Positions 5,450 to 62,836 of a DNA stretch of 64,000 nucleotides are shown here, piece by piece. Every line of letters starts with the position of its first letter. The stretch's first letter is position 1. Where the stretch lies: the NCBI GenBank assembly GCA_965214255.1, contig OZ243948.1:516916-580915 (forward strand), written 5' to 3'. The stretch comes from Alphaproteobacteria bacterium (GTDB lineage Bacteria > Pseudomonadota > Alphaproteobacteria > SMXP01). The position numbers and the translations under genes are program-made. The notes under the pieces were generated by a model, which was given only the letters and a program-made list of their open reading frames with translations, was not told where the DNA came from and searched no databases.

Positions 5450-6082
5450 ATGACGAGTATTCGACATAACGGCACAGTGTGCATTACCGCGGCCCTGACG
5501 GGCCTTTTTTCCCTTATCGTGGTCGGTGCGGGCATCGGCTTTTTGATGCCGAAAGCTGACGCCCAAGTAACCATACCCATAATTTTGGTACTGGACCGAG
5601 CGCAGTTACTTGGTGAATCGGATGCGGGCAAGAATATAACCGAGCAGGCCAAAGAATTGCAGGAATTAATTGCCAAAGAGCTTCAGGAAGAATTCGACGC
5701 GCTGAAGAAAGAAGAAGAACAACTTATTTCCCAACAATCATTACTGGCGCCGGAAGTGCTTCAGGAACGGGCCCAAAAACTACAAATCAAACAGCGCGAT
5801 TTTGAGATCACCAGACAAGTGAAAAACCGAGAGTTTCAAGCTTCAATTGCGCGTGCGCAAAACGAGATTGGTAAAGTGCTTGAACCAATTCTCGGTGACA
5901 TCATTACGGAAAGGTCCGGTACGATTCTGATCGATCGATCAAATATCATGTTTGCCATTCCCGATATTGATGTGACGCCCGTGGCACTTAGACGCCTCAA
6001 CGAAAAACTTCAGACCGTCAAACTTGAACGCGTCAAACTTGAAGTGTCTGCAAACGGCGAATTCACCGAGACGGTAGAATAA
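5450..6082 (+). CDS. skp: OmpH/Skp-family periplasmic chaperone
   Basis: About 200 aa with a signal peptide and long coiled-coil-like K/E/Q-rich segments. Located between bamA and lpxD. Confidence 0.75.
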   Translation: MTSIRHNGTVCITAALTGLFSLIVVGAGIGFLMPKADAQVTIPIILVLDRAQLLGESDAGKNITEQAKELQELIAKELQEEFDALKKEEEQLISQQSLLAPEVLQERAQKLQIKQRDFEITRQVKNREFQASIARAQNEIGKVLEPILGDIITERSGTILIDRSNIMFAIPDIDVTPVALRRLNEKLQTVKLERVKLEVSANGEFTETVE

Positions 6083-57007: not shown

Positions 57008-57673
57008 TCATCCAGTACGCGTCGTCTGACCGTCGCCGTCCGCCGCGTCCGTCGGGTCCTTAAGCGACGGCCAATCGCTGAACGGGAAGGGTTTGTCCTC
57101 CCTGTTGTAGGTCAGATACATAAGAATTTCATAAACGAAGGCGCTCAGGTTCCGCCCGAATGTGAGCAGGCGTCCGTTCGTCTTTCCCGACAGCGCCATC
57201 GAAATGAATTGAAAGACGATAACGGTGAAGACCAGCAACTCCGCGAGCCCCCAAACGATCATGAACAGCAGCATGTAAAGTCCGCGCAGCCACGTGCTGC
57301 GCTTCTTGATGCTGTCCTTGAGATTGGATCGAGTCTCTTCGTTGGTCATGGCCGCCTCCTCTGACTCCGGCACCGGTTCCGCTTCCAAGGCCGCTTGAGG
57401 CGCGGTCAATGGGCCTTCGGCTTCCGGGCCGCCTGCTTGTATTGATCCTTGGTGAAAATGTTTTGAAATCTGCCGGATCACTTCCTCATATCGAGCCTTT
57501 GTGAAAATGTGGCGGGATCCGCTTCCGCAGCGGATCCCCTCCTTACGCATCGCCCGCCGCGCTGTTTTGGGCGTCACCCCGAAATGCGCCGCGACGTCCT
57601 TGGGCGTGTAGAAATCTTTCATCGGGTCGTTCGTCATGGTCACCTCTGCTTCGGTCTCCGGAGCGGACGTCAT
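57008..57673 (-). CDS. Fusion protein: N-terminal excisionase/MerR-type HTH (HTH_17-like) plus C-terminal two-TM small membrane domain (DUF4389-like)
   Basis: 'FYTPKDVAAHFGVTPKTARRAMRKEGI' resembles excisionase-family HTH. The C-terminus has two hydrophobic helices ('LYMLLFMIVWGLAELLVFTVIVFQFI', 'LSAFVYEILMYL'). The start overlaps the stop of the upstream gene (ATGA). Confidence 0.55.
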   Translation of the reverse strand: MTSAPETEAEVTMTNDPMKDFYTPKDVAAHFGVTPKTARRAMRKEGIRCGSGSRHIFTKARYEEVIRQISKHFHQGSIQAGGPEAEGPLTAPQAALEAEPVPESEEAAMTNEETRSNLKDSIKKRSTWLRGLYMLLFMIVWGLAELLVFTVIVFQFISMALSGKTNGRLLTFGRNLSAFVYEILMYLTYNREDKPFPFSDWPSLKDPTDAADGDGQTTRTG

Positions 57674-58356
57674 GTCGCGACTTCATAGAATATGCGTTTC
57701 GACTTGTCTTTGCCGATAAATTTCGCGGTCATCTTTCGGGCGGTGTCCTTGGTCCGGATGTTGTCGCGAAAGTGGGCGTGAAACGCCGAGAGCGCCGCCA
57801 GCCTCTCGGGGTCCGACTCCGGCGCGCATCGAACGAGCCGGGAGAAATAGGCGTCGAGATAGTCCAGTCCGCAGCGGGTCAAATCGTCCAGACGGGCGCG
57901 CGGATTGACGCCGAACACCGTCGCCTCGTGCCGGTACTCTTCCATCCAGTCGGGATATTTCGTCTGCACCGCGAACGGCTCGTAACCCTCAAGTATGGGT
58001 TCGAGCGGCGCGACCCATCGCGCCCGATAGGCGTCGTCCCGGAACGGCGTGCACACGTTCAAATGACAGATGACCCGGCGCGGTATCATCAGATAGAACA
58101 GAAGAAAAATCGGCGCGGCGACGGTTTCCGGCGGATAGAAAATCATGTTGAGCGCGTCGAGCGGCGGGACTTTGAGGTCGAAGTGAAGCGCCGTCATTTT
58201 GGCCAGATGCTCGGACTTCCAGTTGCGCGCCGAGATCTTCACCATCCTCAGGAACGCGGAATTGTCCGATATGTCCGGGTCCAGCGCCACTTCGGTGAGC
58301 GGCGTGTACCGGTCCGCCTTGTCGATGATTTCCCGCATCCGGGCGGTCTGGTCCAT
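57670..58356 (-). CDS. Hypothetical protein with a divergent ferredoxin-dependent bilin reductase (PcyA/PebA/HY2, Fe_bilin_red)-like fold. The catalytic Asp position appears substituted.
   Basis: Three regions align to FDBR signatures as recalled from memory. 'KSEHLAKMTALHFDL...LDALNMIFYPPE..APIF' aligns with 'FRKMHLELAKV..LDILHCVMFPEP..LPLF'. 'ICHLNVCTP' aligns with 'SAAIADLSP'. C-terminal 'RDNIRTKDTARKMTAKFIG...RIFYEV' aligns with 'QKNDKTRRVLEKAFG...QVLFDV'. The start is uncertain; an alternative is the ATG at 58387-58389 or the track start at 58452. Confidence 0.4.
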   Translation of the reverse strand: MDQTARMREIIDKADRYTPLTEVALDPDISDNSAFLRMVKISARNWKSEHLAKMTALHFDLKVPPLDALNMIFYPPETVAAPIFLLFYLMIPRRVICHLNVCTPFRDDAYRARWVAPLEPILEGYEPFAVQTKYPDWMEEYRHEATVFGVNPRARLDDLTRCGLDYLDAYFSRLVRCAPESDPERLAALSAFHAHFRDNIRTKDTARKMTAKFIGKDKSKRIFYEVAT

Positions 58357-58375: not shown

Positions 58376-58600
58376 TCAAACCTCTTCATACAGGCCGCCG
58401 AGCAGTTGGCGATAATTATTCGTGTACGGACAATTCGCCGCCAGCGTCTCAAGCCGCGCTTCTATGTCGCGGTAGACGGTGCTTCGATCCACCTTGAGCG
58501 CCTCGGCGATCTGCCACACGCGCCAGCCCTTCAGCACGTGTTCCATGATCGCGTCGCGGCGTATCTCTCGAACTTGGCGGGCCGATACGGTTTGGGTCAT
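58376..58600 (-). CDS. Small stand-alone HTH protein (resolvase/HTH_7/HTH_23-type DNA-binding domain)
   Basis: 74 aa. 'GWRVWQIAEALKVDRSTVYRDIE' matches the resolvase-type HTH consensus (G...IA..L.VSRSTVYR). Located immediately downstream of the tandem repeat array. Confidence 0.55.
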   Translation of the reverse strand: MTQTVSARQVREIRRDAIMEHVLKGWRVWQIAEALKVDRSTVYRDIEARLETLAANCPYTNNYRQLLGGLYEEV

Positions 58601-58664: not shown

Positions 58665-59200
58665 GTGTTTTGTCGCAGCCCTGGTCGCAAATCTGAACGG
58701 CGCTCGTCATGGCTAAACGCGCGCGATTCCGCCATGTTCAGGGGCAAACCGACTTTGCGACAGGGTTGCGCGTTGTCGCAGCCTATAGTCGCAAATCCGG
58801 ACGGCGCGCGACATCGCGAAAACGGCGCGATTCCGCCATGTTCGAGGGCAATTCGACTTTGCGACAGGGTTGCGCGTTGTCGCAGCCCATAGTCGCAAAT
58901 CCGGACAGCGCGCGACATCGCGAAAACGGCTCGAGTCCGCCATGTTCAGGGGCAAACCGACCTTGCGACAGGGTTGCGTGTTGTCGCAGCCCATAGTCGC
59001 AAATCCGGACGGCGCGAGTCATCGCGAAAACGGCGCGATTCCGCCCTGTTCAAGGGCAATCCGACCTTGCGACAGGGTTGCGCATTGTCGCAGTCAATAG
59101 TCGCAAGACCGGACCGCGCGCGGCATGGCTAAACGCGCGCGATTCCGCCCTGTTTGAGGGCAAACCGACTTTGCGACAGGGTCGCGCGTTGTCGCAGGTT
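58665..59200. repeat. Tandem array of about 5 copies of a 104-bp non-coding repeat, each carrying a TGCGACA-N11-TGTCGCA hairpin
   Basis: The motif 'TTGCGACAGGGTTGCG(C/T)' recurs at 58755, 58859, 58963, 59067 and 59171, an exact 104-bp period. Units 2-4 are near-identical. Units 1 and 5 share the variant 'CATGGCTAAACGCGCGCGATTCCGCC'. A period of 104 is not divisible by 3. Confidence 0.85.
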
Positions 59201-59344: not shown

Positions 59345-61523
59345 GTGAACGTTCAAACGCACGAAAAACTGAAAGCCGGGATCTGGGACATCGCGAACCT
59401 GCTGCGCGGGCCGTACCGGCCTCCCCAGTACCGCCTGGTGATGCTTCCGATGGTCGTGCTCCGCCGGCTCGACTGCGTCCTGGAGTCGACCAAAGACGCG
59501 GTGCTGAAGCGCCGCGACGAACTCGAAGCGCAGTGCGTGCCCGAAGCCGCGATGGACAAACTGCTCGGCCAAGCCGCCGACCCGAAGCGCAAGCATCCGC
59601 TCTACAATATCAGCCCCTACACCTTCGCCCGCCTGCTCGGCGACGCCGAGAACATCGCGCCCAACCTCGCGGCCTACATCAACGGCTTCTCGCCGACCGC
59701 CCATTCCATCTTCGAGCGCTTCAAGTTCACCGATCAGATCGAGAAACTCGACGCGCACAACCGTCTCTTCACCGTGGTCAAGGCCATGGCCGGCGTCGAC
59801 CTTCACCCCGACCGGATCGACAACCTTCAGATGGGCTACCTGTTCGAGCATCTGGTGATGCGTTTCAACGAACAGGCCAACGAGGAAGCGGGAGACCACT
59901 TCACCCCGCGCGAGGTCATCCGCCTCATGGCCAACCTCATCTACACCGGCGAACCGGACGTCTACAAGCCCGGCATTTTCCGCAAAATCTACGATCCCGC
60001 GTGCGGGACCGGCGGCATGCTCTCGGAGTCCGAAAAACTGATCCGCGACCAGAACAAACATGCGAACCTCGCGCTCTACGGCCAGGAGTACAACGACGAG
60101 GCGTGGGCGATCTGCTGCGCGGACATGCTCATCAAGGACCAGGACACCGGCAACATCGTTCTCGGCGACACTCTGGGCGACGGCAAGACCGGAGACGACT
60201 TTGAGGGCTTCCATTATATGATGGCCAATCCGCCCTTCGGCGTCGAATGGAAGGCGCAGAAAGACACGGTCCGACGCGAGCACGAGACCTTGGGGCTCTC
60301 GGGCCGCTTCGGCGCCGGGCTGCCCGCCGTCGACGACGGCTCGCTGCTTTTCCTCCAGCACATGATCTCCAAGATGCACCCGTACAGGTGCGGGGGGGGG
60401 GCGTAGAGAGCAGCCCGGATCGAAGATCGCTATCGTCTTCAACGGCTCGCCTTTGTTTTCCGGCGACGCCGGATCGGGGCCGTCCGACATCCGCCGCTGG
60501 ATCGTAGAGAACGACTGGCTCGACGCCGTCGTCGCGCTGCCTGACCAGCTTTTCTACAACACCGGCATCTTCACCTATGTCTGGCTGGTGACCAACCGCA
60601 AGGCGCCGGAGCGGCGCGGCAAGGTGCAGCTTGTCGACGGCGCGCGCTTCTTCCGCAAGATGAAGAAGAGCCTCAACAACAAGCGCAACGAGATCGCCGA
60701 AGACCAGATCCGCCGCCTGACCCGCGTCTACGCCAACTTCGAAGACGGCGAGACCGCCGAAGTCCAGGTCGACGGCGAAACCGAGACCCGAGTCGTTTCC
60801 CGCGTCTTCGAGAACCGCGAGTTCGGGTTTCTCAAAATAACCGTCGAACGCCCCTTGCGCATGAACTTCGAGGCGTCGCCTGAGCGCATCGCCGGGCTCG
60901 ATGAGCTGACGGCCTTCGCCAACCTGGCGGCGTCGAAGAAACGCAAGGACGAGTCCGCCGCCGCGCGCGAAATCGCTGCGGGGCGAAAGCTGCAGGACGC
61001 CGTCCGCGCCCTGCTCTCGACGCTCGCCGAAAACGGACGATATATGGACCGGACGGCCTTCGACGCCGATCTGACGACGGCCGCCGAGCGCGCCGGCCTC
61101 AAGCTTCCCGCCCCGATCAGGAAAGCGGTCTTCGCGGCGCTTGGGCAGCGCGACCCGGACGCGGAGATCTGCCGCGACGGCGAAGGACGGCCGGAACCCG
61201 ACGGCGACCTCCGCGACAGCGAAAACATTCCCTTGCCGCCGGGAACGGAACTGCCCCTGCCCATGGACTTCGGGCCAGACCAGCCCAACGACCTGCTCGT
61301 CGAAGCGTTCCGGGACCATATCGACGCCTACATGGCGCGCGAGGTGCTGCCCCATATTCCCGACGCCTGGGTGGACTACGCCAAGACCAAAGTCGGTTAC
61401 GAAATCCCCATCAACCGGCATTTCCATGTCTACGAGCCGCCGCGCCCTATCGACGAGATCGAGACGGACATCGCCAAGCTCGAAGACGAGATCGCCGGGC
61501 TGTTGAAAGGGCTGAGGGCGTGA
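59345..61523 (+). CDS. hsdM: Type I restriction-modification system methyltransferase subunit HsdM, split into two frames at a G10 homopolymer (putative phase-variable gene)
   Basis: The N-terminal part (59345-60406) has the HsdM_N motif 'IWDIANLLRGPYRPPQYRLVMLPMVVLRRLD' and the 'NPPFG' catalytic motif. The C-terminal part (60453-61523 in the track, in frame from about 60402) has 'IVFNGSPLFSGDAGSGPSDIRRWIVENDWLDAVVALPDQLFYNTGI'. Removing one G from the tract fuses the parts. GTG start, SD 'GGAGAAGAG'. Confidence 0.85.
60392..60401 (+). repeat. Poly-G tract (G10) inside hsdM coding sequence; simple-sequence contingency locus
   Basis: The sequence reads 'gtgc' followed by ten G and then 'cgtag'. 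In the current frame it encodes 'CGGGA*'. With G9 it encodes 'CGGGRREQPGSKIAIVFNG...', which continues into the C-terminal HsdM domain. Confidence 0.8.
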
Positions 61524-62836
61524 CAGCCGAGTTCGAGCAGCGCTGGTTGAGCGATCTACAGCCCGACTGGACCGAGAGGCGGGCCGACTTTCTGTGCAAC
61601 CCTTACCGAGTGACAGTCGATCCCGAGATTTTTGGCGACGATCTAGTCGCGCACTACTCGATCCCGCAGGTTCAAAAGACCGGCGGACCGTTCATCGAAC
61701 CCGCAAGCGACATCGGCAGTACGAAATTACTTGTAACGGCACCCACCCTTCTGGTCTCGAAACTCAATCCAAGAAAGAAGACTATCTGCATCGCCGAACC
61801 CCACCCGGAGTATCCGACTCTTGCTTCGGGCGAGTTCGTCGCGATCATTTCCGACCAGATGGACCGTCGCTATGCTTACTATCTTTGGTGCAGCGAGAAG
61901 GTCACGGACCGGTTGTCCGCCATTGTTCAATCTGCCACCCGCTCGCACCAACGAGTGAACCCTGCCGACATCCAAAAGCTGCCGTGGAAATGGCCCCCGC
62001 TCGATATGCAGCGGCGCATCGCCGACTTTCTCGACGAAAAAACCTCGCGGATCGACGGACTGATCGAGAAGAAACGCGACCTTCTCGACCGGCTCGCCGA
62101 GAAACGCCAAGCCCTCATCACCCGCGCCGTCACCAGGGGCCTCGACCCCGACGCGCCGATGAAACCCTCCGGCATCGACTGGCTTGGCGACATCCCCGCG
62201 CATTGGAAGCGCATTCGTCTTCGCTGGCTATCCAGACGCTATGCCGGCGGAACCCCAAACACGAAGAACCCCGAATACTGGGACGGCGGCACCATACCTT
62301 GGCTCAAATCAGGGGCGGTGAACCAAGGCACCATTACCGAGCCTTCCGATCACATAACCGAACTGGCCTTGAAGGAATCCAGCGCGAAATGGATTCCTAA
62401 AGGCGCACTGGTGATGGCACTAGCCGGGCAAGGGAAGACCAAAGCAACTGTTGGTTTTCTTGGGATTCGGACAACGGGCAATCAATCGCTCGCCGCGATA
62501 GTCCCCGAGAAGATCGACGGCAAATACCTCTATTGGTGGCTGAGCAGTCAGTACCTCACGCTTCGCAATCTTTCGAGCCAAGATGGGCGCGACGGTTTGA
62601 ACCTGGATATGATTGGCAGCGTAGTTTGTCCGGTGCCCCCGCTCGATACGCAACGGCGCATCGCCGACTTTCTCGACGAAAAAACCGCACGGATCGACGA
62701 GACCGCAAAGCAGGTGCTCCGCTCGATCGAATATCTCTCGGAATACCGCTCGGCGCTGATCACGGCCGCCGTCACCGGCCAACTCGCGGCGGCGCAGACC
62801 GCCGACCTCGGCAACCTTTCCCCGCAGGGAGATTGA
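61520..62836 (+). CDS. hsdS: Type I restriction-modification system specificity subunit HsdS (two target-recognition domains)
   Basis: The conserved spacer repeats 'QRRIADFLDEKTSRIDGLIEKKRDLLDRLAEKRQALITRAVTRGLDP' and 'QRRIADFLDEKTARIDETAKQVLRSIEYLSEYRSALITAAVTGQL' flank two variable TRDs. The GTG start overlaps the hsdM stop (GTGA). Confidence 0.85.
   Translation: MTAEFEQRWLSDLQPDWTERRADFLCNPYRVTVDPEIFGDDLVAHYSIPQVQKTGGPFIEPASDIGSTKLLVTAPTLLVSKLNPRKKTICIAEPHPEYPTLASGEFVAIISDQMDRRYAYYLWCSEKVTDRLSAIVQSATRSHQRVNPADIQKLPWKWPPLDMQRRIADFLDEKTSRIDGLIEKKRDLLDRLAEKRQALITRAVTRGLDPDAPMKPSGIDWLGDIPAHWKRIRLRWLSRRYAGGTPNTKNPEYWDGGTIPWLKSGAVNQGTITEPSDHITELALKESSAKWIPKGALVMALAGQGKTKATVGFLGIRTTGNQSLAAIVPEKIDGKYLYWWLSSQYLTLRNLSSQDGRDGLNLDMIGSVVCPVPPLDTQRRIADFLDEKTARIDETAKQVLRSIEYLSEYRSALITAAVTGQLAAAQTADLGNLSPQGD

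Follow-up and report, generated by a model that had tools for sequence, protein, structure and literature searches.

A predicted membrane-tethered protein joining an excisionase/MerR-type helix-turn-helix domain to DUF4389 in a narrow, probably alphaproteobacterial clade

A 64,000-nucleotide stretch of contig OZ243948.1 (Alphaproteobacteria bacterium, assembly GCA_965214255.1, positions 516,916 to 580,915), hereafter called the window, carries on its minus strand an open reading frame (ORF) in which a putative DNA-binding head is followed by a hydrophobic tail. A first-pass annotation made from the sequence alone had described the product as a helix-turn-helix (HTH) domain fused to a small DUF4389-like membrane domain. 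This raises the question of whether the fusion is genuine and, if it is, what kind of protein the gene, here called HTH-DUF4389, encodes. With a probability of roughly 0.5, we favor the reading that it is a membrane-tethered protein of the transmembrane transcription regulator (TTR) type, in which an excisionase/MerR winged HTH, a flexible acidic linker and a DUF4389 module have been fused in one lineage.

Pfam domain analysis of the protein revealed a strong match to DUF4389 (90.9 bits against a gathering score of 25; E = 4.7e-26), extending over positions 2 to 76 of the 76-position profile. The residues that are invariant in the family (T127, R130, L187, T188, P195, P197 and F198) are all kept in a 20-sequence alignment, and the conserved family motif YLTYNxExxPFPFxDWP is present. 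HTH_17 (PF12728), the second profile that the first-pass annotation had proposed, fell short of its threshold, scoring 23.3 bits on residues 21 to 60 against a gathering score of 27. The divergent HTH allele of a close relative (locus L001) gave 20.2 bits with HTH_17 and 19.3 bits with MerR_1. The excisionase/MerR-type assignment of the N-terminus was nevertheless supported by other means. PHROG 66, annotated as "excisionase and transcriptional regulator," matched residues 5 to 70 (E = 4.6e-7). AlphaFold2 modeled residues 21 to 74 as strand-helix-helix-strand-helix with a predicted local distance difference test score (pLDDT) of 86 to 94, and the domain modeled alone averaged 78. The Foldseek neighbors of the whole model and of isolated residues 13 to 80 alike were all MerR/excisionase-type DNA-binding domains, namely, RacA, pSK1 Par, BldC, GlnR, CarH, Pukovnik Xis, RdfS and phage AlpA/excisionase models, with probabilities of up to 0.99 and TM-scores of 0.4 to 0.6. 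The predicted HTH identity is well supported by these several independent lines, none of which is decisive alone, and it is not proven. Beyond the last HTH helix (residues 59 to 74), the modeled chain is disordered to residue 112, and neither Pfam nor AlphaFold2 placed a MerR-type C-terminal domain, or a long dimerization coiled coil with an effector region, after the HTH.

The linker that follows is acidic and rich in Pro and Ala, as first described, and also in Glu and Gly; its net charge is -7 over residues 76 to 107. Its length had been put at about 60 residues, and this proved to be an overestimate, the linker being some 37 residues long. The two hydrophobic helices of the earlier description differ in quality. 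The first lies in a hydrophobic stretch at about residues 128 to 162, with a core of about 30 residues and a 19-residue Kyte-Doolittle (KD) peak of 2.56; a 4-residue turn, GKTN, joins it to the second, which peaks at only 1.11. Over 168 homologues, the mean KD values of the first and second hydrophobic cores are 2.20 and 0.49, respectively. The assignment of the first helix as transmembrane is secure, and that of the second is probable but not certain. In the same 168 homologues, Lys and Arg residues together average 3.5 before helix 1, 1.4 in the loop and 1.1 after helix 2. Because the most positive segment precedes helix 1, the N-terminus is predicted to be cytoplasmic, the topology that a DNA-binding head would require. 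The domain calls in this way support a membrane-anchored protein whose head is of a DNA-binding type, and the positive flank fits a cytoplasmic N-terminus. In two other DUF4389 proteins, P0060 and P0077, the entire domain is duplicated in tandem; should each unit form a hairpin, its two ends would lie on the same side of the membrane. The coordinates of these features, together with those discussed below, are collected in Table 1.

Table 1. Positions in the window of the HTH-DUF4389 gene, its parts and the adjoining genes (residues numbered from the 221-residue ORF)
Feature	Position	Strand	Residues	Details and basis
HTH-DUF4389 ORF	57008-57673	minus	1-221	ATG to stop, 221 aa; ATG overlaps the upstream stop codon
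Winged HTH, excisionase/MerR (HTH_17-like) type	57452..57613	minus	21-74	Profile matches, AlphaFold2, Foldseek
Acidic disordered linker, length variable	57341..57451	minus	75-111 (~37)	pLDDT 47-57
DUF4389 (PF14333)	57077..57301	minus	125-199	Pfam
Long hydrophobic helix	57188-57301	minus	125-162	AlphaFold2, single helix
Second helix, amphipathic/weakly hydrophobic	57110-57175	minus	167-188	AlphaFold2; KD peak 1.11
Probable true start (Met13)	57635..57646	minus	13	ATG 57637-57635; GAGGTGA 57646-57640; 5-nt spacer; read from sequence
Putative embedded ancestral DUF4389 start (Met109)	57347..57361	minus	109	ATG 57349-57347; GAGGAGG 57361-57355; 5-nt spacer; read from sequence
HTH-plus-linker cassette, replaced in L001 (9986-10299)	57387..57639	minus		blastn gap, dS
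FDBR-like gene	57670..58356	minus		228 aa (MDQTAR...); PF05996 (Fe_bilin_red), 52.2 bits against gathering score 31
Small HTH_23 gene	58376..58600	minus		74 aa, 19 nt upstream of the FDBR-like gene; Pfam

The fusion itself is real and conserved in its clade. The frame is uninterrupted in six contigs or assemblies, the window and five others (from NCBI, ENA and Logan), which together represent three alleles. The proteins of locus L059 (in the metagenome-assembled genome [MAG] GCA_964347375.1), locus L060 and record P0210 are identical to that of the window or carry one substitution. The L001 fusion, of 225 residues, combines a divergent HTH allele with a linker that is a net of about 11 codons longer, and the L061 fusion, of 188 residues counted from its Met13 equivalent, has a linker 16 codons shorter; all linker insertions and deletions among the three alleles are of whole codons. 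Comparison of the window with L061 gave ratios of nonsynonymous to synonymous substitution rates (dN/dS) of 0.37 for the HTH, about 1.0 for the linker and 0.25 for DUF4389, and between the window and L001 the DUF4389 part has accumulated 0 nonsynonymous and 10 synonymous changes. Both the HTH and DUF4389 are thus under purifying selection. Three alleles have kept the neutrally drifting linker in frame without acquiring a stop codon, from which we infer that ribosomes read through it.

Outside this clade the architecture was not encountered. A phmmer search with the full protein against 1.84 billion cluster representatives returned 1,910 matches. The best 150 of these, which were inspected, align only to query residues 86 to 219, that is, to the DUF4389 region, and lack the HTH; most of them align from residues 1 to 10 of proteins of about 100 to 150 residues, and the longer ones carry low-complexity tails or tandem DUF4389 duplications. 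In a word-indexed search of 5.8 billion proteins, the only full-length matches were the window's own cluster and the L001 protein, and the N-terminal 108 residues used as a query in a search of this type gave zero candidates. A metagenome scan with the whole protein found only two distant DUF4389 genes and no further fusion, and a hidden Markov model built from the three HTH alleles detected no additional copy, either in the window or at any FDBR-like locus. The HTH had no match among plasmids and phages (tblastn), and a phmmer search of the PDB gave noise only. The HTH-DUF4389 architecture appears from these searches to be confined to one narrow clade.

Where translation begins bears on how the gene relates to the FDBR-like gene immediately upstream. 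The ATGA overlap of the two genes that had been reported (ATG at 57673-57671, TGA of the FDBR-like gene at 57672-57670) is present in the window, and the upstream gene is a PF05996 member. The first-pass annotation went further and took the overlap to imply stoichiometric co-expression, a step that comparison with the relatives does not sustain: the overlap codon is GTG (GTGA) in L059 and L001, a 13-nucleotide (nt) insertion in L001 throws it out of frame with the HTH-DUF4389 gene, and about 110 nt of extra sequence follows the FDBR stop codon in L053 and L061. The ATG of Met13, by comparison, is kept in all five loci checked (the window, L059, L001, L053 and L061). In four of the five it is preceded by GAGGTGA, a close match to the consensus complement of the anti-Shine-Dalgarno sequence, with a 5-nt spacer; in L001 the spacing is widened by the 13-nt insertion. 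One gene caller has already chosen Met13 for the identical sequence, which is on record both as P0001 (221 residues) and as P0209 (209 residues, starting at Met13). Judged from these sites, translation from Met13 to give a 209-residue product is most likely. Met13 lies 32 nt after the FDBR-like stop codon, and because the gap is so short the two genes are likely to be co-transcribed; stop-start coupling is not supported.

A second start site within the frame suggests how the fusion came about. Met109 is preceded by GAGGAGG and a 5-nt spacer, and every allele keeps this site in its DNA sequence, including those whose upstream part cannot be aligned. It lies where stand-alone DUF4389 homologues begin (most within about 10 residues), and its equivalent in L053 is the called start of a stand-alone 107-residue DUF4389 gene. 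It may still act as an internal initiation site, giving a short, anchor-only isoform. The simplest history would be that a small HTH gene just upstream of a DUF4389 gene lost its stop codon, in a single narrow and probably alphaproteobacterial lineage. L053 is the sole exception to the fused state in the clade: there the HTH and DUF4389 are separate, overlapping ORFs. It differs from its sister L061 by two 1-bp deletions just past the HTH (L053 positions 5925 to 5960), ACAAAGG to ACAAGG and GGTGATCC to GGTATCC. The L053 split is either a recent re-fission or an assembly error, the sequence being a single Logan contig built from public reads.

The HTH part has also been exchanged as a unit. The window and L001 are 95 to 97% identical over about 16 kb except at the cassette listed in Table 1, which blastn could not align and over which the proteins are 46% identical. 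The synonymous distance (dS) between the two is 1.18 in the HTH codons and 0.137 in the DUF4389 part. Because dS is raised as well as dN, the cassette was apparently replaced by recombination with a distant allele and not reshaped by positive selection. Its breakpoints fall at the HTH ribosome-binding site and about 36 nt before Met109, positions that in our interpretation of the alignments are the edges of the formerly separate gene.

Pairing with an FDBR-like gene, which had been proposed as a pattern to look for across genomes, turned out to be a local feature. FDBR-like family members are mostly 228 to 229 residues long, and the exact 228-residue product of the window is on record. A profile scan for the family in one genome per species yielded 48 loci (L005 to L052), mostly from gammaproteobacterial (Chromatiales-like) MAGs. 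DUF4389 lay within 5 kb of the FDBR-family gene in 0 of these 48 genome loci, and an HTH of the present type occurred at 0 of 48. Clustering of neighbors over 53 loci (the 48 plus relatives' contigs) revealed no conserved partner of the FDBR-like family; a conserved operon partner was dropped from consideration, since the clustering gave only antisense shadow ORFs. FDBR relatives 61% and 58% identical to the window protein lie on contigs without DUF4389, in a context of FGE-sulfatase, TonB_C and a coproporphyrinogen-oxidase-like gene. Conversely, no FDBR gene was found beside the stand-alone DUF4389 loci that we examined, whose neighbors are unrelated, varied and largely housekeeping genes. 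The adjacency of FDBR-like and HTH-DUF4389 genes is found on six contigs only (the window, L001, L053, L059, L060 and L061), among which the FDBR-like proteins are at least 87% identical. In this clade the gene order is FDBR-like, HTH-DUF4389, rlpA (DPBB_1 and SPOR domains), a D,D-carboxypeptidase gene (Peptidase_S11), tmk where the contig reaches it, and holB. The pairing is local to one clade and not general; it may still be functional there, and a functional tie to bilin reduction beyond the clade is not supported. A 222-residue gene after the FDBR-like gene in L054, considered as an analogue of HTH-DUF4389, was rejected as unrelated (it has a Tat-type signal), as was a 242-residue gene upstream of DUF4389 in L002 considered as a hidden FDBR, which gave weak TPR matches only.

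Proteins of this general build form a known class. TTRs are one-component regulators that combine a DNA-binding domain with at least one transmembrane region (Demey et al. 2023, PMC10269533). The first-pass annotation had called membrane-anchored transcription factors unusual in bacteria, a view overturned by the published census, which counts 50,302 TTRs in 9,673 of 11,337 genomes, about 5 per bacterial genome (PMC10269533). Sorted by DNA-binding domain, the census includes 151 TTRs with HTH_17, 386 with MerR and 350 with MerR_1; about 57% of TTRs have no further domain of known function, and the RodZ architecture (HTH_25 plus DUF4115) makes up 11% of the total (PMC10269533). Like the TTRs, HTH-DUF4389 joins an N-terminal DNA-binding-type domain to a membrane segment, and its first helix has transmembrane-level hydrophobicity in this protein and in the family mean. 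Its head would be missed by a census held strictly to Pfam thresholds, the HTH_17 score being 23.3 against 27, although other evidence supports the domain. Its membrane part is DUF4389, which does not figure in the census tables that were examined (PMC10269533).

Among characterized membrane-bound regulators, ToxR, CadC and TcpP resemble the predicted HTH-DUF4389 protein in layout: the DNA-binding head lies in the cytoplasm, a flexible juxtamembrane linker ties it to an anchor in the membrane, and the signal is presumably read there. Their winged helix, however, is of the OmpR type (Trans_reg_C), they cross the membrane with one helix, and they carry a folded sensor in the periplasm, whereas HTH-DUF4389 has no periplasmic domain, only the 4-residue turn, a short conserved motif and an acidic tail. 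Trans_reg_C gave no Pfam match in HTH-DUF4389 at E values of up to 1, and AlphaFold2 placed no folded domain past the helices. The best structural neighbors of residues 13 to 80 are instead BldC, the RacA N-terminal domain, pSK1 Par and phage Xis/AlpA. As in BldC and Xis, the HTH here lacks the MerR dimerization coiled coil and effector pocket. All of these neighbors differ from HTH-DUF4389 in being soluble, without an integral membrane domain, and the sequence similarity lies below the Pfam threshold. RacA also brings DNA to the cell envelope, via DivIVA. RodZ resembles HTH-DUF4389 in having a small HTH tethered to the inner membrane and in its cell envelope gene neighborhood; its HTH, however, is of the XRE type and binds MreB, and it has a single transmembrane helix and a periplasmic DUF4115. 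Neither HTH_25 nor DUF4115 was found in HTH-DUF4389 by Pfam at E values of up to 1. At the other end, the C-terminal 113 residues are those of a typical stand-alone DUF4389 protein, such as the product of the Pseudomonas aeruginosa gene between gpsA and sixA. They share the basic STWLR entry, the long hydrophobic helix, the TGxTN turn, the second helix and the YLTYNxExxPFPFxDWP motif. The stand-alone proteins differ in being about 100 to 150 residues long with a short acidic N-terminal tail, and a folded domain at the N-terminus is absent from all that were inspected.

In the favored reading, a TTR-type protein tethered to the membrane, the product would be made from Met13 as 209 residues by a gene co-transcribed with, and not stop-start coupled to, the FDBR-like gene. 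Anchored at the inner membrane, the HTH would contact DNA, the most plausible sites being those close to its own FDBR-like/HTH-DUF4389 operon, and DUF4389 would provide the anchor and possibly also a membrane-side input. Several observations weigh against this. The HTH_17 score is below threshold, and the Foldseek E-values for the HTH are weak (0.06 to 0.6). The second helix is only weakly hydrophobic, and the C-terminus may lie on either side of the membrane. Membrane anchorage of an HTH does not by itself imply DNA binding, as the binding of MreB by the RodZ HTH illustrates. DUF4389 is a family without an assigned function, its only mention in the literature searched being an entry in a gene table. 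L053 shows that the halves are able to exist apart, if both 1-bp deletions are real. Finally, the sigma-70 scan picked up no promoter-like site, and neither it nor the terminator scan rose above the expectation from shuffled sequence.

Four other explanations were weighed, and they are taken here in order of falling confidence. The functional unit could be DUF4389 translated from Met109, the HTH frame having simply run on into it once its stop codon was lost and the full-length product being minor or dispensable, or the locus could deliberately produce a long and a short isoform. The DNA-level conservation of the Met109 ribosome-binding site and ATG, even beside unalignable upstream sequence, would suit such an arrangement, and so would the absence of the HTH from the best 150 of 1,910 homologues (most starting within a few residues of Met109), the separate ORFs of L053 and the neutral evolution of the linker. 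Set against this is a frame that stays open in three diverged alleles with whole-codon linker indels, which would be unexpected without selection for read-through; moreover, the two 1-bp deletions that are all that separates L053 from the fused L061, in a single-contig assembly, may be errors, and a conserved SEEAAM/SKEAAM stretch is equally explicable as peptide constraint. We consider two products, or an incidental fusion, unlikely. A RodZ-like adaptor, in which the HTH would be a protein-protein module connecting a partner in the cytoplasm with a function at the membrane or envelope, seems to us more doubtful still. Against it, the HTH here is of the excisionase/MerR type, with DNA-bound domains as its closest structural neighbors, and not of RodZ's XRE type; stand-alone DUF4389 genes, furthermore, do not lie beside rlpA in the other loci seen. 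What speaks for the adaptor is that HTH-DUF4389 stands directly upstream of rlpA and a PBP5-type D,D-carboxypeptidase gene, in an order kept in all six clade loci, with no terminator-like site found after it on its own strand, and that RodZ, likewise a HTH with a transmembrane segment and a domain of unknown function, is counted among the TTRs (PMC10269533).

The abortive-infection-type module of the first-pass annotation corresponds to a phage defense sensor-effector, in which the HTH would sense foreign DNA and the membrane module would damage the membrane. The surroundings lend this some color: the locus adjoins a type I restriction-modification system, to which L059 adds a toxin-antitoxin pair of the PIN/FitA-like kind, and the HTH cassette has been swapped between near-identical genomes, a pattern that is frequent in defense loci. 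The raised dS of the swapped segment, however, denotes recombination and not positive selection, and the block of FDBR-like gene, HTH-DUF4389 and rlpA persists in L053, where a TonB-dependent receptor replaces the restriction system. PADLOC gave a weak mad1 match to the HTH (18.1 bits), but no model of PADLOC-DB 2.0 rose above noise, and the FDBR-like and HTH_23 neighbors were at noise level too. DUF4389 is under strict purifying selection, its neighbors in other bacteria are diverse and mostly of a housekeeping kind, and the searches of phages and plasmids turned up no homologue. A defense role is on this evidence improbable. Least credible of all is that two adjacent genes were wrongly joined by annotation or assembly. 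L053 does show two ORFs, and gene callers do disagree on the start (221 versus 209 residues), but the same open frame recurs, in three alleles, in five further independent contigs or assemblies (NCBI, ENA and Logan), and we regard an artifact as very improbable indeed.

If the favored reading of a membrane-tethered regulator is correct, HTH-DUF4389 is one more TTR architecture, an excisionase-type HTH on a DUF4389 anchor, in a class that is mostly uncharacterized. It is a lineage-specific addition: the fusion itself is new, and the class to which it belongs is known and populous. The protein would also offer a handle on DUF4389, a widespread small membrane family (at least 1,910 representative clusters) that has been without an assigned function so far, in that a DNA-binding head fused to DUF4389 implies a cytoplasmic DUF4389 N-terminus, provided the protein works as proposed. 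The locus is in addition a clean natural case of recent gene fusion, with the old ribosome-binding site and start still visible, the HTH cassette exchanged, and a sister that has possibly split again. It has no bearing on any long-standing open question.

A bolder version can be imagined, in which HTH-DUF4389 would be a BldC/Xis-like multimerizing DNA binder at the inner membrane, made in two forms, one full length from Met13 and one from Met109 comprising the anchor only, and tying a chromosomal site to the membrane or coupling an FDBR-like tetrapyrrole product to gene expression through DUF4389. We regard this as a long shot; were the coupling to a tetrapyrrole product to hold, it would give DUF4389 its first function. 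One candidate for the membrane-tied site would be a tandem array upstream of the operon, at 58670-59197, between the divergent hsdM and the HTH_23 gene. There, a 104-bp unit is repeated 5.1 times (87% matches), and each unit holds a palindrome, TGCGACA-N11-TGTCGCA, and a further GTCGCAA; 11 of the 16 TGTCGCA heptamers of the window lie inside the array. L059 carries 4.1 copies of the unit and L001 also has the array; L053, L061 and the rest of the window lack it, and no Rfam family matches it. One of the operon's two HTH proteins might use it as an operator array. Because the array is absent from two loci that carry the fusion or its separated halves, it is not a general target of the fusion.

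The FDBR-like gene is thus flanked by two small HTH modules, HTH_23 and HTH-DUF4389. The HTH_23 gene occurs only in the subgroup of the window, L001, L059 and L060, and no such gene was called in L053 or L061; it was found only in the subgroup that also carries the 104-bp array. The FDBR-like gene itself is an orphan, its context being unlike the published pre-PcyA and AX-clade gene clusters. No copy was found in viral contigs scanned with the FDBR-like profile, and a crude tblastn of the 64-kb window, a weak test with a Synechocystis HO1 query, found no heme oxygenase.

The region upstream of the FDBR-like gene is variable, and in L053 a TonB-dependent receptor stands in place of the restriction system. 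Insertion of a mobile element at a tRNA was considered and dropped, as the window has no tRNA, no Rfam family match and no sharp GC break. The type I restriction-modification locus of the window occupies 59345-62836 on the plus strand and consists of hsdM, an unannotated ORF and hsdS. Beside it, L059 has a FitA-like ribbon-helix-helix (RHH)/PIN toxin-antitoxin pair and L001 an RHH gene only. The hsdM orthologues of L001 and L059 contain HsdM_N and N6_Mtase domains, and the ORF between hsdM and hsdS, which has 356 residues in the window's mechanical ORF list, is called with 311 residues in both of these loci.

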